Below are positions 323 to 17,954 of a stretch of 64,000 bases of DNA, one piece after another; positions within the stretch are counted from its first letter, which is position 1; the number at the start of each line of letters is the position of its first letter. The notes below the pieces were generated by a model. That model made no database searches, was not told where the DNA came from, and was given only the letters and a program-made list of their open reading frames with translations. Source of the DNA: an uncultured Candidatus Saccharibacteria bacterium (lineage in GTDB: Bacteria; Patescibacteriota; Minisyncoccia; Phycocordibacterales; SW-6-46-9); assembly GCA_964534365.1 (NCBI GenBank), contig CAZHOI010000003.1, forward strand, positions 4,310-68,309, in the 5' to 3' direction. A program made the translations under genes and the position numbers.

Positions 323-393
323 TACCGGCTCGTCTAATGGTAGGACAACAGGTTCTGGTCCTGTTAATCGGGGTTCGAGTCCCTGGCCGGTAG
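323..393 (+). tRNA. tRNA-Gln (anticodon CTG)
   Basis: Manual cloverleaf: acceptor TACCGGC/GCCGGTA, D-arm GTCTAATGGTAGGAC, anticodon stem ACAGG/CCTGT with loop TTCTGGT, T-arm GGGGTTCGAGTCCCTG. No encoded CCA. Confidence 0.8.
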
Positions 394-591
394 CTACTAG
401 CAATTAAGTCTAGGTACAAAGCACTTGGGCTTTTTTGCTAGTTTTTGGTGTGGGACTCGCACCACAAGAGTATTTCCATTTTGTAAACAAAACTAGGTCA
501 AAGACAGAGGTGTGCTAAGTCAAAACTTTTAGTTTTGAGCCGAGTCGGGGTCGAGAGTTCTTATAAGCGTAGCGAATTAGAAACTCGTGAC

Positions 592-610
592 CGAGTCCCT
601 GGCCGGTAGC
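592..610. repeat. 19-bp direct repeat of the tRNA-Gln(CTG) 3' end (cgagtccctggccggtagc; first copy at 376-394)
   Basis: Exact 19/19 match seen in the sequence, about 215 bp downstream of the tRNA. The 545-612 stretch looks like a degenerate tRNA 3' half (att-like scar). Confidence 0.7.
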
Positions 611-640
611 ATAAATATTACAATACACTTTTCTTCATTA

Positions 641-700
641 TAGGGTGACTGTCACCTATTTCACCTATTTTAGGGTGACTGTCACCTATTTCACCTATTT
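641..700. repeat. Tandem 30-bp unit x2 (tagggtgactgtcacctatttcacctattt), i.e. 4 copies of the (T)CACCTATTT motif headed by the palindrome GTGAC-T-GTCAC
   Basis: Perfect tandem duplication seen directly. The same motif family recurs at 1798-1888. Confidence 0.85.
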
Positions 701-702
701 TT

Positions 703-1096
703 AAAGAACCATTTAAGGATAAACCATATACTAAAGACGATGCCGTAAGCTTTATAAACTGGATTAAAGAAGTATGGGATAAAAACAGTCACTTTGTATT
801 TATTGTTAGAGATAGTAGCAATAGCATTATTGGAGCAATTGATATTAAAGGATCTGACTTAAAAAAAGGAGTAATAGGATACTGGTCCCGATAGAAACGC
901 CAGTGGATTTATGACCAACACCCTTAAAGCTCTTGAAGACTTGGCTAAAGAAGCTGGGTTTAGGATTCTTTCTGCAAAGGTTCTAGTTGATAACAATAAA
1001 TCTAAAGGTGTCTTAGAAAGAGCTGGTTTTAACGAAAGAGAAAAGAGGGAAGGTGAGAGTGACTTGTATGATGAATATTATAAAACAATAAGCTAA
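703..1096 (+). pseudogene. GNAT-family N-acetyltransferase (RimJ/RimL-like), N-terminally truncated and frameshifted
   Basis: One frame (codons 700-894) reads FKEPFKDKPYTKDDAVSFINWIKEVWDKNSHFVFIVRDSSNSIIGAIDIKGSDLKKGVIGYWSR*, with no start codon and abutting the tandem repeat. The GNAT C-terminal half (…RNASGFMTNTLKALEDLAKEAGFRILSAKV…GVLERAGF) continues in a different frame from about 893 to 1096. Confidence 0.6.
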
Positions 1097-1109
1097 AAGC
1101 AAAACTTAG

Positions 1110-1156
1110 TTAAAAGTTCTGACGTCGTTCCACATGTTTAGCACAAATTTTAAGTT
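1110..1156. repeat. Cassette-junction element copy A (consensus AAAGTTCTnACnTnnTnCCAnAnnGcTAGC … ACTTTT)
   Basis: Starts 14 bp after the GNAT stop. Aligns with copies B, C and D. Confidence 0.6.
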
Positions 1157-1169
1157 ACAATTATAGTTA

Positions 1170-1739
1170 ATGAAAGACTTTAATGATTCACAAAAATATA
1201 TTTGGGAGTCAGAAAAATATTGGACTAAGAAAATCATTCCGCATTTAAATGATAAAGTCCTTAAAGTTGGAAACGGATTAGGTTACATGAGTACTTTCTT
1301 AAAAAACGAAGGGGTTGATTTAACCATTCTAGATGTATCAATTGATGAGCAAGCGATTAATAAAGATGAAGTAATTTTATACGATGGACAAACCTTTCCT
1401 TTTAAAAATAACTCTTTTGATTCGGTTATGTGTACTTTTGTTCTACACCATACCCTAGAACCTCAAAAGATACTCAGAGAAATGAAAAGGGTAGCAAAAA
1501 GAGTAATAATTCTTGAAGAAACATATACTAATATATTTTCAAAATTAGATCTAGTTTATAGAGATATCTGGGTAAACTTTACCGCTGGTCAGCTATCGAA
1601 GATTTACTGGAACAGTTATTTTAGTAGGAAGTCTCTCCCTGAGACATTGTCAAAACATAACTTATCTGTAATTACTCACTATAAAGAGAATAAGAGGAGT
1701 TATATGAAAGAACTTTACGTGGCAGAAAATATTAAATAA
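1170..1739 (+). CDS. Class I SAM-dependent methyltransferase (Methyltransf_11-like)
   Basis: VLKVGNGLGYMS matches a glycine-rich SAM motif I; FDSVMCTFVLHH matches the acidic/hydrophobic motif II/post-I. 189 aa. Confidence 0.7.
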   Translation: MKDFNDSQKYIWESEKYWTKKIIPHLNDKVLKVGNGLGYMSTFLKNEGVDLTILDVSIDEQAINKDEVILYDGQTFPFKNNSFDSVMCTFVLHHTLEPQKILREMKRVAKRVIILEETYTNIFSKLDLVYRDIWVNFTAGQLSKIYWNSYFSRKSLPETLSKHNLSVITHYKENKRSYMKELYVAENIK

Positions 1740-1794
1740 AAGTTCTGACTTGGTACCAAACCGCTAGCAAATATTACACCACACTTTTTACAGC
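1737..1794. repeat. Cassette-junction element copy B
   Basis: Begins at the methyltransferase stop codon (taaaagttctgacttggtaccaaaccgctagcaa…cacactttttac). Has an inverted AAAAGT/ACTTTT at its two ends. Confidence 0.65.
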
Positions 1795-1797
1795 TTT

Positions 1798-1888
1798 TGG
1801 GTGACTGTCACCTATTTTCACCTATTTTGTGTCACCTATTTTGTCACCTATTTTCACCTATTTTCACCTATTTTCTGTCACCTATTTT
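1798..1888. repeat. Iteron-like array: 7 copies of CACCTATTTT at 10-14-bp spacing, headed by GGGTGACTGTCACC
   Basis: Seen directly. The head is identical to the 641-700 array. Confidence 0.85.
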
Positions 1889-1940
1889 GAGAGATTTAAG
1901 AAATAGCTTATTTCATTTCTTTTCAGTGAAAGGAGTTGCC

Positions 1941-2195
1941 ATGACTTTTAGAGAACTAGACACTAAAGCACGAAAGTTAGAAAAAGATACTAATAACAAA
2001 GTTAAGTTTTTATCACCCGAAGATTTATCAGAGATAGTAACAGGAGCATTTTTTCTAATAATGGAAGAATGGACGAGAGATTGTAGAGATAGTTTGAGAA
2101 ATAACAACAATAAGTTTAAAAACCGAATAATGTGTGTTAAGACTATAGTAGAAAGACATGCTGCGATGATAGTTGAAGAAAAAGATTTAAATTAA
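1941..2195 (+). CDS. Hypothetical small protein (84 aa)
   Basis: ATG is preceded by gaaaggag (a Shine-Dalgarno-like site). The upstream part of the tracked ORF lies in the repeat array, so the start was moved to 1941. Confidence 0.45.
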   Translation: MTFRELDTKARKLEKDTNNKVKFLSPEDLSEIVTGAFFLIMEEWTRDCRDSLRNNNNKFKNRIMCVKTIVERHAAMIVEEKDLN

Positions 2196-2248
2196 AGTTC
2201 TTACTTCATACCAAACAGCTAGCAATGTTTTAGGCAACCACTTTTGGC
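2193..2248. repeat. Cassette-junction element copy C
   Basis: Begins at the stop of the 84-aa ORF (ttaaagttcttacttcataccaaacagctagcaa…ccacttttgg). Confidence 0.65.
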
Positions 2249-2579
2249 ACTCCACTACGTTAACGCTGGACTCCGTAAGCTCTTCGGAGCTGATCCGATA
2301 TGGCACACCATGCGCTTCTATACTTTGCACTTCCCTGAAAAGGGTGACAACTACAAAGTACTTACGTTCACTGGTCTCGCTCACACTGATCAATACGGTC
2401 ATCTGTTTGGCCTTACCGCGAGCGTTCATCTGGACAAGAACGCGCAAGGCAAATGGCAGGTCGAGAAGGTTGTGATTAATCCGCAAATGCGATCTGAGGT
2501 AGCTAACCCTCTGCCGAAACGAGTGGAATATCTCGTAAATGGACACTGGGACGGCCTTCCTCTGCGCACTGCACTCTAA
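2244..2579 (+). CDS. Hypothetical protein with GC content visibly higher than its neighbours (the neighbours look AT-rich); start uncertain (TTG at 2244 or ATG at 2310)
   Basis: Long ORF with a strong compositional contrast to the neighbouring genes. No recognisable domain. Confidence 0.4.
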   Translation: MALHYVNAGLRKLFGADPIWHTMRFYTLHFPEKGDNYKVLTFTGLAHTDQYGHLFGLTASVHLDKNAQGKWQVEKVVINPQMRSEVANPLPKRVEYLVNGHWDGLPLRTAL

Positions 2580-2634
2580 CCTCATCTTGACCCTAGAAGA
2601 CCTCATCTTCGCGGGCAGGGTGAGGTTTTCTAGT

Positions 2635-2693
2635 TAAATTAAAGTTCTAACATCGTTCCACACTGCTAGCTATCAAACTTTTGTGATCCGCCA
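2635..2693. repeat. Cassette-junction element copy D
   Basis: ttaaattaaagttctaacatcgttccacactgctagctatcaaacttttgtg. Lies between convergent genes and overlaps the 3' end of the C39 peptidase gene. Confidence 0.6.
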
Positions 2694-3056
2694 CTGTGGT
2701 TTTCCCAGCAATCGCCTGCGATAGCCGGCGCTAATATCAATATTTGGGTAATTAATCCAGGGATCCATCCAGCCTCTATCGGTATTTAGCAGGTAGTGCC
2801 CCGAACCGTATTTTTTATTCCTAGCAAAAACAATGTCTCCATTAGCATAATTGTAATTTTGTACTTTAATTGATTTATAGGTTAGTCCAACTTTGGATAG
2901 CGCCTTGATAATGTTGTGATTATAAAAACCTCGTAGATGCTGATACTTGCTCCCGTAATCAAACAATTTTAGTGATTCTTCGTACGTAATATTTAGTACC
3001 GAGGCAACACAAGCTACCGAGCAGCCCATCATTGCTTGTTGTTTTACCAGATTCAT
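2673..3056 (-). CDS. Standalone papain-like cysteine peptidase, C39-like (BtrH-like)
   Basis: Q…C motif QQAMMGCSVACVASVL (Gln about 5 residues before the catalytic Cys) and a His motif GSGHYLLN, in the order typical of C39. Confidence 0.5.
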   Translation of the reverse strand: MNLVKQQAMMGCSVACVASVLNITYEESLKLFDYGSKYQHLRGFYNHNIIKALSKVGLTYKSIKVQNYNYANGDIVFARNKKYGSGHYLLNTDRGWMDPWINYPNIDISAGYRRRLLGKPQWRITKV

Positions 3057-3421
3057 AAACTTAACTATAAGATTTTATATTTTATTAACAATTACTCGCT
3101 TGTAGTTCAAAAACTGATTGTGTCAATTCAATCAATTCTTTGAATATTTTAGTTAGATGAATCTCTATCCTTTTTAAAAACAAATAGGTACAAAGCCCTA
3201 TTTTCTAGTTATACCCACTATCCCCACAAGTTACTTTTTATTAACAAATTTACCATTTTCTAGACAACGATGATTTACTGTGATGGGTTGTGTGGATAGC
3301 AGCTAAATTGGGGAAATTATCTCAACCATCAACTAATTTAGATGTAGACTAAGAATATAGCTGATATTTTCAGTCAAGTACCAAATTATCCAGTTTATTA
3401 AACAGCTCTTAAGATAAATAA

Positions 3422-7055: not shown

Positions 7056-7577
7056 ATGAAATTAGCAATTGCAATGGTGGTATTACTGATAGCTGCGGTT
7101 GGTCTAACCACCTTGTTAGGCGAAGATAATACGTCTGAAACAAAAACGCTGGATAATGGACAATTACCAGCAGTTCCGAATCAACCAGAAACAACTCCTG
7201 GAGCTATAGAAAATGAGCGCACCTTATCAAGAATAGGTAATGGCGCTGAGCTGGTATCAGTTTCAAATCCGATAGCAAATCAAACCATTAATTCACCGGC
7301 ATCAATCAAGGGACGAGCGCCAGGATACTGGTTTTTTGAAGCTACCGCGCCAGTTTCAGTTGTTAATTGGGACGGTTTAATTATTGGCGAAGGCTTTGTT
7401 ACCGCAGAAGGTGATTGGATGACGACTGAATTGGTACCATTTGATGGTCAGGTATCATTTGAGTCGTCCGATGATACACCGTCGAACTGGGGCTGGGTGA
7501 TCTTGCGACGGCAAAATGCATCAGGACTGCCAGAAAATGATGCAGCCGTTGAAATCCCCGTATTCTTAAGTAATTAA
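7056..7577 (+). CDS. Exported Gmad2-type immunoglobulin-like domain protein
   Basis: N-terminal hydrophobic signal/TM segment. GYWFFEATAPVSVVNWDG…GDWMT…NASGLPEN resembles PF10648. Confidence 0.5.
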   Translation: MKLAIAMVVLLIAAVGLTTLLGEDNTSETKTLDNGQLPAVPNQPETTPGAIENERTLSRIGNGAELVSVSNPIANQTINSPASIKGRAPGYWFFEATAPVSVVNWDGLIIGEGFVTAEGDWMTTELVPFDGQVSFESSDDTPSNWGWVILRRQNASGLPENDAAVEIPVFLSN

Positions 7578-7582
7578 ATATA

Positions 7583-9410: not shown

Positions 9411-10679
9411 TTAATTTGTTAGTAAAACTGCTAAATCAGAGACGTTTGATTCTAGATAGCCAGTGTCAATTAAACTATCAGCTGCTTTTAAACCAGGTAA
9501 ACAGTTAAATCCTTTCAAACATTCATTTGGATCAACGCCTTTATTATATATGTCTTGAATAGTTTTATTATCAACGATCGCACCAGCTGCGTCAGAATTA
9601 TCATGACCGTCAGATGCAAAAGCAACGAAAACTTGATTTTTAGCTATCTGAGCTGAAGCCAACAATGCTAAATAAGAATTTCTGCCACCTGATCCTTTTG
9701 TTTTAGAAGGCACATTTAATGACCATTCGCCACCAACTAATATAACTGATTTTTGATTAGCTTCGGCAATCATTTTCTTAGCAACCTCTGCAGCCTGGTC
9801 ATATGTTTGATTTGTCATAATACTGACATGGTAACCCAAATTTTGAGCGTGTTTTTGCATCGCATCAAGAGCGTAGTGATTAGTGACAACCGCAAAATTA
9901 TTCACTTTTTTAAAGTATTTATGATCTTTTGGTGTCTCGCGCAGCTGATAATCACCTAGATTATATTTATTGACTATTTCTTTTGCGTCTGCAATGGTAC
10001 TATCATCATAAAATGTTGGTCCGGATGCTACTGAGTCTAAATTATCACCTGGAACATCCGAAAATATCAAACCAATAACTGTAGCTGGATAGAGTAATTT
10101 TGCTAAACCGCCACCTTTAAGGGCAGAGAGGTGCTTACGAACGGTATTTAGCTCTTTGATATCACCACCAGTTTTTTTGAAATCATGATAAAGTCTTGTA
10201 TTTTGTTCACACTCATCAATATCTGAACATAACAACGAACTGCCGCCGCCGCCAATTATTGCAATAACCAAATCGCGTTCAGTTGCGGCTTTTGATACAT
10301 TCATAATCTTGCCACCAGCCTCATAATTTATCGGTGATGGCACAGGATGGGTTCCTTTATAAGTTGTAATAACTTGACACACACCATCACTAATACCGAC
10401 AACGGCACCGCCTTTAATTTTATTAGTTAGCATGTTTTCAATTACACTGGCTGCTTCACAGGCTACTTTACCAGTACCAACAACATAAATGTGCTCGTAG
10501 TCTGAAAATCTATATATGGCATTACTAATTTTCAGCTCTGTTTCAGTAACACTAATTTCACGGTGTAGAGATTTTTCGGTATTGATAGCCTCCAGGCCAG
10601 CCTGGACTATTTGCAAAGCATGATTATGATTTTGTGTTTTTGCTAGTTCACTAAAGTTTTTAATTAATTGTTTGGTCAT
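9411..10679 (-). CDS. Glycerate 2-kinase, MOFRL family (GckA/TtuD-like)
   Basis: IIGGGGSSLL, VRKHLSALKGGGLA, SDVPGDNLDSVASGPT and GGEWSLNVPSKTKGSGGRNSYLALL…SDGHDNSDAAGAIVD match the DUF4147+MOFRL pattern. Confidence 0.8.
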   Translation of the reverse strand: MTKQLIKNFSELAKTQNHNHALQIVQAGLEAINTEKSLHREISVTETELKISNAIYRFSDYEHIYVVGTGKVACEAASVIENMLTNKIKGGAVVGISDGVCQVITTYKGTHPVPSPINYEAGGKIMNVSKAATERDLVIAIIGGGGSSLLCSDIDECEQNTRLYHDFKKTGGDIKELNTVRKHLSALKGGGLAKLLYPATVIGLIFSDVPGDNLDSVASGPTFYDDSTIADAKEIVNKYNLGDYQLRETPKDHKYFKKVNNFAVVTNHYALDAMQKHAQNLGYHVSIMTNQTYDQAAEVAKKMIAEANQKSVILVGGEWSLNVPSKTKGSGGRNSYLALLASAQIAKNQVFVAFASDGHDNSDAAGAIVDNKTIQDIYNKGVDPNECLKGFNCLPGLKAADSLIDTGYLESNVSDLAVLLTN

Positions 10680-10680
10680 G

Positions 10681-11688
10681 TTATTTTACAAGATTAATAA
10701 TTTCTCCTTTAATGTATGACTCAATATTTTTGACAGTTGTTTGAACAATACGCTCTTTTGCTTCAATGGTATTGAATGCGATATGTGGTGTTAAGATTAC
10801 ATTTTCCATATCTAACAATGCATGTGTCATCGCCAGATCATAAAAAACATTGATATCATTTTGTTTATCCGTTAACAATAATGCTTCGTCGTAGATAAAA
10901 TCTTCGCCCTCGATAACATCCAGTGCCGCGCCTGCTAATGTACCTGATTGCAACACCGCTAATAGTGCCGCAGTATCAATCAATTCACCTCGTGCGGTAT
11001 TAATCAAGTACGCACCGGTTTTGACATTACTCAGATTACTCTTGTTTAGCAGATGGTGCGTAGTGTCATTATGTGGCGCGTGCAAACTGATAATGTCAGA
11101 TTTCTCTAACAACTCATCCAAAGCTGTATATTCGATCTTGTTTGCAGTTGCAAACTGTACGTTGGGATAAGGATCAAAGGCGATAACATGCATCCCAAAG
11201 CCATTTGCAATTTTGCACACATGCTGTCCGATTCTTCCTGTACCGATAATACCAATAGTTTTGCTATATAGATCAAAACCTTCGTAACTCGCCATGTTAG
11301 TTTTGCCGCTGGTGCGCAAGTGATCATAAGCGCGATAACTGCCCCTGGACAGTGCTAATAACAATGCAAATGTATATTCAGCTACTGTCCTGGACCCATA
11401 TTCTGGAACGTTTACTACCGTAACATTATTTTGTTCTGCAGCTTCAGCGTTGATATGATCGTATCCTGTCGATCGTGTGGCAATTAACTTTAAGTTTTGC
11501 AAGTCACGGATTAATTCATTTGATACCGGATTATTAACAAAGACCGATAAAATATTGGTATCCTCGGGAACCAATAGTTTTCCACTCGGGTCTATAGTTG
11601 TACTAGAAAAACTAACTGAATATTTTTCAAAATGTTCCTGCCAACTAGATTGTTCATGTTCTGAAATGCCGCAAATATGTAATTTCAT
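10681..11688 (-). CDS. NAD-dependent D-isomer-specific 2-hydroxyacid dehydrogenase (hydroxypyruvate/glycerate or D-lactate dehydrogenase)
   Basis: GIIGTGRIGQ Rossmann motif, plus LINTARGELID and the catalytic His region. Confidence 0.8.
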   Translation of the reverse strand: MKLHICGISEHEQSSWQEHFEKYSVSFSSTTIDPSGKLLVPEDTNILSVFVNNPVSNELIRDLQNLKLIATRSTGYDHINAEAAEQNNVTVVNVPEYGSRTVAEYTFALLLALSRGSYRAYDHLRTSGKTNMASYEGFDLYSKTIGIIGTGRIGQHVCKIANGFGMHVIAFDPYPNVQFATANKIEYTALDELLEKSDIISLHAPHNDTTHHLLNKSNLSNVKTGAYLINTARGELIDTAALLAVLQSGTLAGAALDVIEGEDFIYDEALLLTDKQNDINVFYDLAMTHALLDMENVILTPHIAFNTIEAKERIVQTTVKNIESYIKGEIINLVK

Positions 11689-11742: not shown

Positions 11743-13155
11743 ATGAACAAACTTACAAAGATTGTGGCAACAATTGGGCCCGCTAGTAACTCTGAAGAAA
11801 CAATACGCGAGCTCATTAAAACCGGTGTTAATACATTTCGACTGAATTTTTCACACGGTGATCACGACTGGCACCGCAACCTTAGCAACACCATTCGAAA
11901 AGTTGCCACTGAATTTGATCAAGGTATTTCTATTCTGCAGGATCTCGCGGGACCTAAATTACGAACTGGTAAATTTGATAAAACATTAACTACCTTAACC
12001 GCCGGTGATACCTTGGAATTAACTAGCGAAGATATCATTGGTGACGAATCAAAAGTTGGTGTCAACTATCCTGAACTAATCCAACAAGTCTCGATTGGTC
12101 AAATACTGCGCTTGGACGATGGCAAGCTTAGTCTGGAAGTAGTCGAGAAAAGACCTAGCTCGGTGATTACTAAAATTATCGAAGGCGGGGAAGTCAGATC
12201 AAGGCGGGGAATAAATGTACCTGGTTTGGCTTTGGACATTAATGTATTTACCGATAAAGACCAGTGTGATCTGGAATATTGGCCTACAGATAATCCAGAT
12301 TGGATATCATTATCTTTTGTTCAATCTTCCGATGACATTCTAAATTTAAAAAATCACTTACAAAACAAAGGTTCAAACAGCAACGTTATGGCAAAAATTG
12401 AAACTTCAGCAGCGGTTGAAAATATCGACTCTATTATCGAAGCCAGTGACGGGATTATGGTAGCCCGAGGGGACCTGGCTGCTGAAACCCCAATCGAAGA
12501 AGTTCCTGTTTTGCAAAACCGTATTATCAATCTGGCGAGACAAGCAAACAAGCCTGTTATAGTAGCAACTCAGATGATGGATTCAATGATCCATAACCCA
12601 TTACCTACGAGAGCCGAAGTAACTGATGTCTCAACCGCTATTCTTGACGGTGCCGATGCAATTATGTTGTCAGCTGAAACTGCCACTGGTGATCATCCTG
12701 TTAAAGTGGTAAATATGATGGCAAAAATTGCTGAAGTCACTGAATCTTCAAATTTATTCAAAAATCGTTTGCTTCACAACCTATCATCGCATTCCAAGGC
12801 TGGTTCGGCCGCGGCCAGTATTACCGCTTTTGCTAAAGCTCAAAACGCCAAAGCTATTGTGGTTATAACGCAATCTGGCGCTATGGCACGCGCAGTGTCT
12901 CGATTGCGTCCTGGATTACCTATAATTGCAATCACTATTGATATTACTATTGGTAGACAGCTGGCAATGTATCATGGTGTTTGGTCGCGACACACAACAG
13001 ATTTACCAGATACTGATTCTGAATTACGTAGTTGGTTACCGGATTATTTAGTTAAACACTCTTATCTTAATCGCGGTGATACTATTTTGGCATCATTTGG
13101 TCAACAAATTCACAAATCAGGCAGCACTGACACAATTACTTTAATCACAATCTAG
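11743..13155 (+). CDS. pyk: Pyruvate kinase
   Basis: TKIVATIGPAS…LNFSHGDH N-terminal signature. 470 aa. Confidence 0.92.
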   Translation: MNKLTKIVATIGPASNSEETIRELIKTGVNTFRLNFSHGDHDWHRNLSNTIRKVATEFDQGISILQDLAGPKLRTGKFDKTLTTLTAGDTLELTSEDIIGDESKVGVNYPELIQQVSIGQILRLDDGKLSLEVVEKRPSSVITKIIEGGEVRSRRGINVPGLALDINVFTDKDQCDLEYWPTDNPDWISLSFVQSSDDILNLKNHLQNKGSNSNVMAKIETSAAVENIDSIIEASDGIMVARGDLAAETPIEEVPVLQNRIINLARQANKPVIVATQMMDSMIHNPLPTRAEVTDVSTAILDGADAIMLSAETATGDHPVKVVNMMAKIAEVTESSNLFKNRLLHNLSSHSKAGSAAASITAFAKAQNAKAIVVITQSGAMARAVSRLRPGLPIIAITIDITIGRQLAMYHGVWSRHTTDLPDTDSELRSWLPDYLVKHSYLNRGDTILASFGQQIHKSGSTDTITLITI

Positions 13156-13251: not shown

Positions 13252-13274
13252 TATCGGTTCGTCTAATGGTAGGC
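13252..13274 (+). repeat. Partial duplicate of the tRNA-Gln 5' half (acceptor + D-arm, tatcggttcgtctaatggtaggc)
   Basis: 22/23 identity with the first 23 nt of tRNA-Gln(TTG), which lies 165 bp downstream. The match then diverges, and there is no anticodon or T-arm. Confidence 0.6.
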
Positions 13275-13416: not shown

Positions 13417-13490
13417 TACCGGTTCGTCTAATGGTAGGACACTTGGTTTTGGTCCAAGGAATCGGGGTTCGAGTCCCTGACCGGTAGCCA
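13417..13490 (+). tRNA. tRNA-Gln (anticodon TTG), CCA encoded
   Basis: Acceptor TACCGGT/ACCGGTA, anticodon stem CTTGG/CCAAG with loop TTTTGGT, T-arm GGGGTTCGAGTCCCTG, then GCCA. Confidence 0.8.
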
Positions 13491-13496
13491 CTTTTT

Positions 13497-14045
13497 TATA
13501 GAAACCCACGGGTAAACCCGTGGTCCTTCTCTTTCACAGCAACACTTGTTGCTGTCCTGAATCCTGGTGTCCTTGGTGCTCTACATAGTGCTTGATAATT
13601 TCTTCGTCAGCTCCAATAGTTGAAGAGAAGTATCCTGGTGACCAGACAATGTTTTCTTTCCAATAAACTTTGGCGAGCCAAGTAAACTTTTTACGCAGAC
13701 TCGAGGCTGATTGGCTTTTAAGTTGTGCCACTACAGATGATACTGAGTACTTGGGTGGTATTAGTAATACCATATGTAAGTGATCTTGATCGAAGCCAAT
13801 CGACCCTCGAACAACACCAGGCATCTTCTTTTCGAGTGAGTTAAGGACTTTAGTGAGATAGCTAGCAACACCAGGCTTCAGGATCTTCCTGCGATATTTA
13901 GTTACCCAAACTATGTGGTATTTGTGATAGTAAGTGCTATGAGCGGTACTGTAGTATTTCATTCTGTACCCCAGCATATCGCATACAGATCCTCATTCAT
14001 CCACGGCTAAAGCCGTGGTGTTCTGTCCCCAAGGGGGCGGGATAA
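13497..14045 (-). mobile_element. IS200/IS605-family insertion sequence (tnpA only)
   Basis: A Y1 HUH transposase gene is flanked by near-identical subterminal palindromes, CCACGGGTAAACCCGTGG at 13506-13523 and CCACGGCTAAAGCCGTGG at 14001-14018. The ends are approximate. Confidence 0.6.
13534..13962 (-). CDS. tnpA: IS200-type transposase TnpA (Y1/HUH)
   Basis: YHIVWVTKYRRKIL…HLHMVLLIPPKYSVS…Y is typical of IS200 TnpA. Start taken at the internal MKYYS. Confidence 0.85.
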   Translation of the reverse strand: MKYYSTAHSTYYHKYHIVWVTKYRRKILKPGVASYLTKVLNSLEKKMPGVVRGSIGFDQDHLHMVLLIPPKYSVSSVVAQLKSQSASSLRKKFTWLAKVYWKENIVWSPGYFSSTIGADEEIIKHYVEHQGHQDSGQQQVLL

Positions 14046-14063: not shown

Positions 14064-14396
14064 CTAGCGAAAGGCTAAGTTAGGGGTTTCGGGTGAAAGA
14101 AGAGCTTTTAAGCGTTGGGTTAGTGTGAACGGCTTTGGTGAGCGAAGACCAGCTTGAGTAATGCGATACCTCTGTTGAGGTAATTCAATATTCTCACCTC
14201 GGTAATGTATTGTTTGTATAATTTCTTCAGACTCTATAAGGTTTTGATCTTCTAGCTGATCAAGCCAAACATAAACAGTACCTGACTTGAGGCATCCGTT
14301 TGAACGCTCTATGATCTCGCGACCAAGTAACCATCTTGGATTAACATCAGCCAAGATATCAAGGGCACACTGACGACTCTTTTTTCCAAAGAACAT
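14064..14396 (-). CDS. PadR-like winged-helix transcriptional regulator
   Basis: GREIIERSNGCLKSGTVYVWLDQLEDQNLIES matches the PadR pattern. GC content is visibly higher than the surroundings. Confidence 0.5.
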   Translation of the reverse strand: MFFGKKSRQCALDILADVNPRWLLGREIIERSNGCLKSGTVYVWLDQLEDQNLIESEEIIQTIHYRGENIELPQQRYRITQAGLRSPKPFTLTQRLKALLSPETPNLAFR

Positions 14397-14675
14397 GGGA
14401 ATGGGGAGGGAGGTGAGGAGAGACCTATAAAAATAATAGTACTATAAATACTTTATTTGTAAACATTTGAATTGATTGAAAAAGTTTTAACTTGGCATCA
14501 GATCAGTAGATATAAAACTTTTAGTACAGTTGAATCGTAGTCATTATTGGATTACTTTTATACGGTTACGGATGAACTATATAATTTAATAGAAATAAAA
14601 AAATCGAGCCATATAAAGCTCGAATTTAGTTACTGCTACTTTATGAATAATAGCTTTTATCAGTTTAAAACTAGA

Positions 14676-17062: not shown

Positions 17063-17317
17063 TTATTCTAACAAGTTACTTATTCGTTTTCGTAGCTGCG
17101 AATAGGCTCGACTTTTTAATTTAAGATTTTGTTCTCGCTTACCCGCATCATCCTCGGCCTTATATGACTCATAGTAGATTAACTCGAGGGGTCTTCGAAG
17201 TTTAGTTGATTTAACTTGTCCAGTAAGGTGTTCATTTAATCGTCGCTTAAGATTATTAGTAGATCCAATATAAGAATTTCCATCCTTAATGCTCTTCAAT
17301 ATGCAAACATAAAACAT
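17063..17317 (-). CDS. GIY-YIG nuclease-domain protein (UPF0213-like)
   Basis: FYVCILKS…SYIGSTNNLKRRLNEHLTG…YYE…REQNLK matches GIY-YIG. Start set at the internal Met, because the longer ORF would overlap the tRNA-Leu gene. Confidence 0.7.
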   Translation of the reverse strand: MFYVCILKSIKDGNSYIGSTNNLKRRLNEHLTGQVKSTKLRRPLELIYYESYKAEDDAGKREQNLKLKSRAYSQLRKRISNLLE

Positions 17318-17326
17318 AAGTTGGTG

Positions 17327-17412
17327 TGGTGCCCGGGGAGGGACTCGAACCCTCACGCCAATATGGCCGGGGATTTTAAGTCCCCTATGTCTACCGATTC
17401 CATCACCCGGGC
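17327..17412 (-). tRNA. tRNA-Leu (anticodon TAA), type II, CCA encoded
   Basis: Reverse complement reads GCCCGGG TG ATGGAATCGGTAGACAT AGGGGA-CTTAAAA-TCCCC, a long variable arm, GAGGGTTCGAGTCCCTC CCCGGGC A CCA. Confidence 0.8.
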
Positions 17413-17498
17413 TTGAATGACAAGTGATGACAGTTTAAAAGAAATAGGATTATTTTGCCAGTTGAAGTAATGCTAGTAACAGACTAAACTATCAACAC

Positions 17499-17570
17499 GG
17501 CGCGGTGGCGAAGTGGTAACGCCGGGGACTGCAAATCCTCTATGCCCGAGTTCGATTCTCGGTCGCGCCT
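17499..17570 (+). tRNA. tRNA-Cys (anticodon GCA)
   Basis: Acceptor GGCGCGG/TCGCGCC, anticodon loop CTGCAAA, T-loop GAGTTCGATTCTC. Confidence 0.75.
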
Positions 17571-17630
17571 CTAGTTAATTGATAACCTTTGACAGGAACT
17601 CATCCCTCGGCATAAGGATGAATATCGCGA

Positions 17631-17954
17631 TTATAAATTTTGGGAAATTTCGTCTAGTCGTTGACGATGACGTTCGCCCACATCCAGTTTGAAAGTGAAA
17701 AAAGGTAGACGTTTGATCGTTAATCGACCTTTAGCAAAACTTCGTAACTCGGCGGCGTGTCGATTCAGGAAATCTTCGGCTTTATGTTGTTCAGTAGCAG
17801 GAATGGTAGTAAAAAAAATAGTACAGGCGCGAATATCAGGCGATACATCAGCACGAGTAACGGTAATTAAGCTTTGTGGATTGGCAATTCCACTAACAAA
17901 TTCTGCTGCGGTTTCGCGGAATAGTTCATTTAATCTGTCCTGTCGTTTTGTCAT
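17631..17954 (-). CDS. rbfA: Ribosome-binding factor A
   Basis: RLNELFRETAAEFVS…ITVTRADVSPDIRACTIFFT signature. Located directly downstream of infB. Confidence 0.8.
   Translation of the reverse strand: MTKRQDRLNELFRETAAEFVSGIANPQSLITVTRADVSPDIRACTIFFTTIPATEQHKAEDFLNRHAAELRSFAKGRLTIKRLPFFTFKLDVGERHRQRLDEISQNL

Follow-up and report, generated by a model that had tools for sequence, protein, structure and literature searches.

A 64,000-nucleotide stretch of DNA from an uncultured Candidatus Saccharibacteria bacterium (assembly GCA_964534365.1, contig CAZHOI010000003.1, positions 4,310 to 68,309; hereafter the window) carries, directly beside a tRNA-Gln(CTG) gene, an array of four small modules, each ending in a copy of a conserved core of about 31 nt. 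The same core recurs in other genomes of the Candidate Phyla Radiation (CPR). It is confined to arrays, lies between transcription units, and bounds a variable cargo that includes one cassette common to two arrays; the arrays themselves start at alternative tRNA-Gln anchors. The arrangement is most readily read as a cassette array built by site-specific recombination, in which the 31-bp core would be the cassette site, the 3' end of tRNA-Gln or a fragment of it the docking site, and the recombinase would be encoded elsewhere. We place the probability of this reading at about 0.55, slightly better than even.

In the window, the core has the form aAAAGTTCTNAC-N6-CCAMAYN-GCTAGCa and occurs at 1111-1144, 1737-1770, 2192-2225 and 2639-2672. 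A scan with the degenerate 29-mer AAGTTCTNACNNNNNNCCAMAYNNYTAGC, allowing up to three mismatches, matched at 1114-1142, 1740-1768, 2195-2223 and 2642-2670, all on the + strand, and nowhere else in the 64 kb. Shuffled sequence is expected to give 0.03 matches, and four matches were reached in none of 100 shuffles, so the four junction elements first reported for this region by a first-pass annotation are real. A repeat search likewise recovered a direct-repeat family of four, with start-to-start distances of 626, 455 and 447 nt, all within 1.6 kb. The window copies differ from each other at 6-11 of the 29 positions. Copy 1 is the most diverged (TTTAGC for GCTAGC; 27.3 bits with nhmmer), copy 2 (33.7 bits) overlaps the stop codon of a methyltransferase gene, copy 3 (29.9 bits) overlaps that of an 84-aa open reading frame (ORF), and copy 4 (34.8 bits), the last in the array, abuts the stop codon of a convergent C39-like peptidase gene. 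A position within 15 bp of the stop codon of a same-strand gene, claimed earlier for every copy, applies to three of the four; copy 4 lies about 60 nt from the stop of a 111-aa ORF, behind a hairpin. The conserved element had also been given as about 50 bp long and bounded by an inverted AAAAGT/ACTTTT pair. Across genomes, nothing beyond the 31 nt is conserved, and the pair is specific to the window and missing elsewhere. ACTTTT does follow copies 2-4, 10-17 nt past GCTAGC, and copy 1 has AATTTT instead.

The restriction of the core to the array is sharp. In the pattern scan, none of the other ~60 gene junctions in the window had a core, and with no copy outside the array in 64 kb the core lacks the genome-wide spread that is typical of dispersed intergenic repeats, such as repetitive extragenic palindromes, their mosaic elements (REP/BIME) or uptake sequences; nor is it a common feature of ordinary junctions. 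A profile scan of the non-array parts of related loci (8-21 kb each) returned no core. A very weak core-like sequence at 14480-14509 of the window (7.2 bits) is at most one decayed core.

Outside the window, a strict pattern scan over one genome per species (185,579 species) gave three matches, all in CPR metagenome-assembled genomes, one of them from Kaiserbacteria and two from Pacebacteria. When metagenome contigs were scanned with a slightly relaxed pattern, seven loci matched. Four of these hold true arrays; at the remaining three, a lone copy lies in unrelated sequence, and these were treated as chance. Following homologues of window proteins to their genomic surroundings added further arrays. 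With a profile made from 28 cores, true sites score 22.9-37.8 bits and everything else stays at 10 bits or below. In total, 30 cores were found in nine distinct genomes, and they were recovered in CPR (Paceibacteria-type) genomes only. An alignment anchored on the core shows conservation over about 31 nt only (aAAAGTTCTAACaTCgTcCCAcAcnGCTAGCa), and the flanks are without shared sequence between genomes.

All 30 cores are direct repeats within their arrays, 0.43-1.25 kb apart, with one core per gene or gene pair. Most arrays start at a tRNA-Gln gene or at a tRNA-3'-end fragment. The anchor is tRNA-Gln(CTG) in the window and in L001 (related loci are numbered with an L), tRNA-Gln(TTG) in L014 and L015, and an isolated tRNA-3'-end fragment in L002, L003 and L009. 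In L001, from Kaiserbacteria, tRNA-Gln(CTG) is followed by a HIT gene, a core, a membrane protein gene, a core, a 208-aa gene, a core, a NUDIX gene and a core. In L014/L013, the order is pyrG, tRNA-Gln(TTG), a 21-nt duplicate of the tRNA end, and at least six cassettes. The Pacebacteria arrays L002/L003 are headed by the isolated fragment AAAGTTCGAGTCCTAGTCCGGTAGCA, with no tRNA gene nearby. In L009, two identical 34-nt copies enclose a lone 109-aa cassette, which lies between proS and mreB. Across the arrays, the cargo comprises GNAT and methyltransferase genes, five NUDIX genes, HIT, MazG, an AAA_33 kinase, SDR, bPH_2, CIA30 and many orphans.

Many copies have a hairpin with a T run immediately upstream of the core and, 10-45 nt downstream of it, a TTGACA-17-TATAAT-like pair. 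With terminators before it and promoters after it, the core sits between transcription units and outside the transcripts, a position that, judged from sequence, argues for a role at the level of DNA rather than RNA. An alternative is a cis-regulatory signal carried by a class of accessory genes, which could act as a promoter module, as an unusual terminator or pause site, or in RNA processing or stability. Such a signal would be at home at the 3' ends of genes, where the core often overlaps the stop codon (copies 2 and 3; also L001 and L002), and copy 1 does overlap a promoter-like pair, TTAGCA-18-TATAGT. Consensus-like -35/-10 pairs follow most cores in the related arrays, but in the window only copy 1. 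We nevertheless consider a regulatory role very unlikely. At least seven copies have a canonical terminator upstream and a separate promoter downstream, and the core is missing from the other window junctions. No hairpin is predicted on either strand of the core, an Rfam search over the region returned the tRNA only, and the count of promoter-like matches in the array region equals the shuffled expectation; on the hairpin and promoter results, a promoter/terminator module was rejected. The pair TCTGAC-17/18-cAaaTat, put forward earlier as a repeated promoter, fails the promoter scan, in which its hexamers are not among the matches, and these hexamers are not conserved in other genomes.

The first-pass annotation had filed the array as integron-like, or as a cluster of attC sites lacking an integron integrase (CALIN). 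As in integrons, the cassettes are co-oriented and variable in content, each holding a single gene and a repeat, and the cargo (GNAT, NUDIX, many orphans) is integron-typical. However, when the four junctions were folded as single-stranded DNA, z-scores against shuffles ranged from -1.15 to +1.23 over both strands. An attC-like fold was rejected on this ground, as no junction folds better than shuffled sequence. The repeats hold neither an attC-type imperfect palindrome nor a stable single-strand fold and are conserved in sequence rather than structure, no IntI was found, and the cassettes appear to have their own promoters. A canonical integron or CALIN is, in our judgement, extremely improbable. 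What stands of the earlier claim is its core idea, an array built by recombination at a tRNA gene, which fits the comparative data; the integron label, lacking both the attC-type fold and the integrase, does not.

The head of the array supports a link to tRNA-Gln. The anchor is tRNA-Gln(CTG) at 323-394 on the + strand (ARAGORN; Rfam tRNA, 54 bits), and the 3' 19 nt of this gene (376-394) are repeated at 592-610, also on the + strand. This duplicate, which we call the a-type site and which forms the array head, is exact, as the first-pass annotation had stated. The head thus shows what is found in tycheposon-like islands, that is, integration at a tRNA 3' end with a direct repeat of the tRNA end. 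To the left of the a-type site, the bases AAACTCGTGAC are similar to the core's left part. A spacer of 197 nt (395-591, + strand) with no ORF and no Rfam match separates the two 19-nt direct repeats. It contains the terminator-like hairpin of the tRNA (406-432), an inverted copy of a short T-loop segment (GGGACTCG, ~452-459), and a b-like, that is core-like, remnant (AGTTCTTATAAGCGTAGC, ~559-576). The same layout of tRNA end, inverted partial copy, direct copy 150-190 nt downstream and first cassette is found in L014 and L031, where the tRNA-end direct repeats measure 21-22 nt, so the spacer of the window is not a one-off scar.

Heads formed by tRNA-3' fragments are found also in L002, L003, L009 and L014. 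In L002 and L009, the fragment is a hybrid of AAAGTTC, from the core's left flank, and GAGTCC...GGTAGC, from the right part of the tRNA. A crossover between the core and the T-loop of the tRNA would yield exactly such heads. By eye, the core and the tRNA-Gln 3' end can be aligned as GTTC(+5 nt)GTCCC-N7-TAGC, and the core is the same across genomes whose tRNA-Gln 3' ends differ. The link between core and tRNA is contextual: genuine tRNA-end fragments sit at array heads. Separators that are clearly tRNA-Gln-like (CCGTTTATCATGGTTCGAATCTC...TAGC) are found in L027.

From comparisons between genomes, we infer that the cassettes would be mobile. The closest relative found, L015, has a small subunit of ribonucleotide reductase (RNR) that is 83% identical, and shares the gene order of the window (ornithine decarboxylase, release factor, FtsE, FtsX, a ~200-aa gene, tRNA-Gln(CTG), RNR). 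Between its tRNA-Gln(CTG) and RNR, there is a histidine kinase only, with no cassettes and no C39-like gene; at least five cores follow its tRNA-Gln(TTG) instead. The tRNA-Gln(TTG) site of the window is occupied by an IS200 element, a PadR-like gene and no more than the one decayed core mentioned above. In relatives at 75-81% RNR identity, synteny is lost. Comparison of ~29 cassette ORFs revealed no common cargo beyond distant NUDIX relationships, with the exception of a bPH_2 cassette. This cassette is common to L015 (cores 18961/19548) and L022 (cores 2154/1665) at ~77% nucleotide identity. The homology begins ~8 nt past the upstream core and does not reach the downstream one; the cassettes on either side are unrelated. 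Variability at the level of single cassettes, on which the earlier proposal had hung, is thus seen in the cargo, in the bPH_2 cassette and in the different tRNA-Gln anchor of the nearest relative, and in no relative do gene order and cargo simply repeat those of the window.

Exchange of this kind could also result from ordinary homologous recombination after DNA uptake, which would need no dedicated recombinase and in which the 31-bp cores would serve as portable homology arms. A length of about 30 nt comes near to the lower limit for RecA-dependent exchange. The lack of a recombinase near any array would be accounted for, the window encodes DprA and a pilin-like protein, which fits competence, and cores are near-identical within a genome (34 of 34 nt in L009; the copies of L013/L014). 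Yet homologous recombination explains neither the location of the arrays at tRNA-Gln genes or tRNA-3' fragments, nor the hybrid a/b head sites, nor the conservation of 31 nt across CPR families amid diverged surroundings, and the window copies, with the differences given above, would be poor substrates. We hold it to be unlikely.

Also improbable, in our view, is a tRNA-linked island in which the modules would be decayed remains of larger, integrase-carrying elements after serial integrations at tRNA-Gln, with the repeats as att scars that are immobile now. For tycheposons, tandem integrations with partial tRNAs between them have been documented (10.1101/2020.12.28.424599). In the window, the exact 19-nt duplication of the tRNA 3' end, the partial duplicates at both tRNA-Gln genes, the pseudogene, the orphan GC-rich segment and the IS200 element beside the other tRNA-Gln would all suit such a history. 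The core, however, does not look like a decaying tRNA copy, being unchanged where the tRNA-Gln 3' ends differ and better conserved than its flanks. Furthermore, the modules uniformly hold one or two genes, with promoter and terminator signals still intact, integrase fragments are not present, and the bPH_2 cassette is bounded by cores in two different arrays.

Under site-specific recombination, the reading that we prefer, four small, self-contained cassettes would have been inserted beside tRNA-Gln(CTG). Each cassette would comprise one gene, preceded by a leader or promoter and in some cases followed by a terminator, with the ~31-bp core at its 3' end. The core would act as a double-stranded recombination site and the tRNA-3'-end fragment as the entry site, while a recombinase encoded elsewhere, most plausibly a tRNA-targeting tyrosine integrase, would insert, excise and shuffle cassettes between sites. 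The site-specificity of the exchange, the kind of recombinase, the crossover position and any present-day activity are inferred. A further-reaching version is that CPR bacteria of the Paceibacteria type possess a cassette-capture system of their own, unrelated to integrons, with promoter-bearing cassettes, a 31-bp site, docking at tRNA-Gln, a distant recombinase, and movement within and between lineages. This we propose tentatively, at somewhat less than even odds.

Several results weigh against site-specific recombination. No recombinase gene was found in the window, where unrecognised ORFs were searched against Pfam and the remaining ORFs were called housekeeping by eye, nor in the flanks of L001-L003, L015 and L027; a nearby tyrosine recombinase or IntI-like gene, which the first-pass annotation had suggested as a search target, thus did not turn up in the 64 kb or in these related flanks. 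Dyad symmetry, as expected where a tyrosine recombinase acts on a simple core site, is missing from the core. The resemblance between the core and the tRNA-Gln 3' end is not significant (p 0.01-0.4 by local alignment against shuffled cores); because this test is unconvincing, descent of the core from tRNA-Gln was dropped and is not claimed. The core is rare under the strict pattern. Neither the 29-nt pattern nor the 34-nt core has a match in viral contigs, phage records or plasmids, on which ground a phage or plasmid origin was rejected, and a scan of viral contigs with the a-type tRNA 3'-end sequence returned nothing. Among the genomes compared, no two strains showed the site empty in one and occupied in the other, no circular junction was seen, and four population contigs, which have an identical RNR protein, carry the same array in identical arrangement. 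Finally, the cassette nearest to the head contains a decayed pseudogene.

This pseudogene, the cargo of cassette 1 (700-1096, + strand), is a GNAT acetyltransferase gene with a frameshift near 892. Its spliced translation matches Acetyltransf_3 (E 3e-13) at profile positions 30-138 of 138, and from this match of the two joined frames the gene is both 5'-truncated and frameshifted. Cassette 2 encodes a class I S-adenosylmethionine (SAM)-dependent methyltransferase of 189 aa (1170-1739, + strand; Pfam Methyltransf_11/23/25). Homologues with 53-57% identity are found in other tRNA-linked arrays (L018, L031), and the 57%-identical one forms the first cassette of L031; the homologues in L021 and L035 are not in arrays. 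The cargo of cassette 3 is an 84-aa ORF (1941-2195, + strand) with an AAAGGAG ribosome-binding site upstream and a gene call in L007; it has no Pfam or PADLOC match, and its PHROG match is only marginal. These gene calls of the first-pass annotation, together with that of the C39-like peptidase, hold. Among the orphan cargo, there was no defence-system match, and phage-family matches were only marginal.

Cassette 4 contains a GC-rich orphan ORF of 111 aa (2244-2579, + strand). The region has a GC content of 0.47-0.52, compared with 0.29-0.36 in its neighbours and 39.6% (0.396) in the window. No homologue of the ORF was found among 1.84 billion (1.84e9) representatives, so the earlier description of this gene as clearly foreign is sound as to GC content and has that content as its sole basis. 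A 139-aa ORF overlaps on the other strand, which means that the 111-aa ORF may not be a gene. The whole of 2226-2750 is GC-rich, up to 51.5%, and gene callers disagree on its strand (111 aa on +, 139 aa on -). A terminator-like hairpin lies at 2607-2625 on the + strand, between the 111-aa ORF and core copy 4.

Two of the cassettes have homologous leaders, at 613-700 (cassette 1) and 1769-1890 (cassette 3), both on the + strand and 80% identical over 97 nt. The homology begins 1-2 nt after the TAGC(A) of the a-type site in cassette 1, and of core copy 2 in cassette 3. Both leaders contain the perfect palindrome GGTGAC-T-GTCACC; after it, TCACCTATTT(T) is repeated directly, with four copies in the first leader and seven in the second (TCACCTATTTT units), 11 in total. 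Elsewhere in the 64 kb, TCACCTATTT has two near-matches, each with a mismatch. The leader repeats look like an operator or iteron array for a DNA-binding protein.

The array is capped by the convergent C39-like cysteine peptidase gene (127 aa; 2673-3056, - strand; Pfam Peptidase_C39, E 3e-5), which belongs to the variable segment, being missing from the syntenic site in L015. Homologues cap arrays in L022/L023 and L027, and in all a stand-alone C39-like peptidase gene is convergent to the distal end of three tRNA-Gln-linked arrays (the window; L022, 819-1205; L027, 8001-8390). Such peptidases are also found in DPANN archaea, and the homologues in L024 and L028 are not beside arrays. The C39 ORF is in frame with the reversed core copy 4, with only TGA TAG between them. 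The core as the 3' end of this gene was rejected, because nine homologues, 38-73% identical, end differently (WKITRVQ and similar). Conservation along the core follows a 3-nt period (permutation p 0.03). The reverse frame, L-A-V-W-D-D-V-R-T-F, shows mostly conservative changes, is often preceded by an NTG codon, and occurs as a motif only in short ORFs. A coding remnant was considered and not adopted; the synonymous excess is not distinctive (0.32 vs 0.30 in another frame).

The tRNA genes of the window have peculiarities of their own. The acceptor and T arms of tRNA-Gln(CTG) are of the TTG-isoacceptor type (TACCGGC.../...CCCTGGCCGGTAGC), and the syntenic tRNA-Gln(CTG) of the closest relative (L015, 7488-7559), like the tRNA-Gln(CTG) of Kaiserbacteria, has TGCCAGA.../...CCTAGTCTGGCAGC. 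The anchor tRNA itself may have been replaced or converted. At the second tRNA-Gln gene, tRNA-Gln(TTG) at 13417-13490, a duplicate of 19 nt from the 5' part lies 143 nt upstream (13255-13273), and this ~165-nt insert is missing in the closest relative. Given the duplications at the CTG and TTG genes, both tRNA-Gln genes bear small insertion scars. Directly 3' of tRNA-Gln(TTG) lies an IS200-type insertion sequence (13495-14020) with hairpins at both ends, followed by the PadR-like gene (14064-14396, - strand). Its Y1 transposase (13534-13977, - strand), ~11 kb downstream of the array, is the only transposase found; it was rejected as the mobilising enzyme, as the core is without hairpins and no such gene lies near other arrays.

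Two related loci show further features. In L015, a GC-rich, strongly folding segment of ~390 nt (17312-17700) lies between tRNA-Gln(TTG) and the first core, with a canonical terminator at its end; it shows neither an Rfam match nor similarity to the window, and may be an unannotated RNA gene. In L018, the 53%-identical methyltransferase homologue is part of another array, downstream of tRNA-Glu, whose cassettes (methyltransferase, NUDIX and others) are separated by a different direct repeat of ~55 nt, TATTCCAACTCACCAAAGAAGGTTTCGACCCGGGTAGTCGTTAGG, with copies at 7511-7580, 9755-9824, 10786-10855 and 11793-11862. This array may represent a sister system with a different site, and would be one if CPR bacteria do have a capture system of their own.

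CPR bacteria have tiny genomes with few recognised mobile elements, and to our knowledge no integrons have been described in them. How they acquire and exchange accessory genes is therefore poorly understood. Our literature searches returned no description of such arrays in CPR bacteria, and the arrays look like an integron-like but non-integron way of collecting accessory genes that is undescribed in this group. If this holds true, a compact, sequence-defined cassette system at tRNA-Gln would offer a concrete route for CPR gene exchange, and the 31-bp core would be a simple marker for cataloguing the flexible gene pool of CPR bacteria in metagenomes. This pool is rich here in small-molecule and nucleotide-modifying enzymes (NUDIX, HIT, MazG, GNAT, methyltransferase, kinase). 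The core would also represent a new recombination site, whose enzyme becomes searchable, and would indicate that arrays resembling those of integrons can be built around a site of quite another kind.

Among known systems, integrons and tandem tRNA-site islands such as tycheposons come nearest. With integrons and CALINs, the arrays share their one-directional order, mostly single-gene cassettes with a site at each cassette 3' end, a distinct entry site at the head, a highly variable and often orphan cargo, and the occurrence of the same cassette with different neighbours. They differ in that the site is a conserved 31-bp sequence instead of an attC hairpin, no IntI and no array-adjacent integrase was found, and the entry site is the tRNA-Gln 3' end or a fragment of it. 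Moreover, integron cassettes are mostly promoterless and depend on a common Pc promoter, whereas those described here appear to have their own promoters and often their own terminators, and the host is a CPR/Patescibacteria lineage.

In the tycheposon islands of Prochlorococcus, integrative elements lie in tandem at tRNA genes (10.1101/2020.12.28.424599). The arrays resemble these islands in the tRNA anchor, the duplicated tRNA 3' end, modules separated by att-type repeats, and variability between close relatives. Tycheposons, however, are much larger and carry integrases, whereas the modules here measure 0.45-1.25 kb and have no integrase or replication genes; the separator appears to be a distinct core shared across families rather than a partial tRNA, and the head of an array can be an isolated tRNA fragment that lies far from any tRNA gene. 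A third point of comparison is the pdif (Xer) modules of Acinetobacter plasmids, which comprise one or two genes between ~28-bp sites and depend on a recombinase encoded elsewhere. Their sites consist of XerC/XerD arms, two inverted 11-bp arms in dyad symmetry, and alternate in orientation. Small modules of one or two genes bounded by short sites are common to both, but the cores have neither inverted arms nor alternating orientation. Unlike pdif sites, they are asymmetric, with no dyad in the consensus, all 30 are direct repeats, and the arrays that they form are chromosomal and linked to tRNA.

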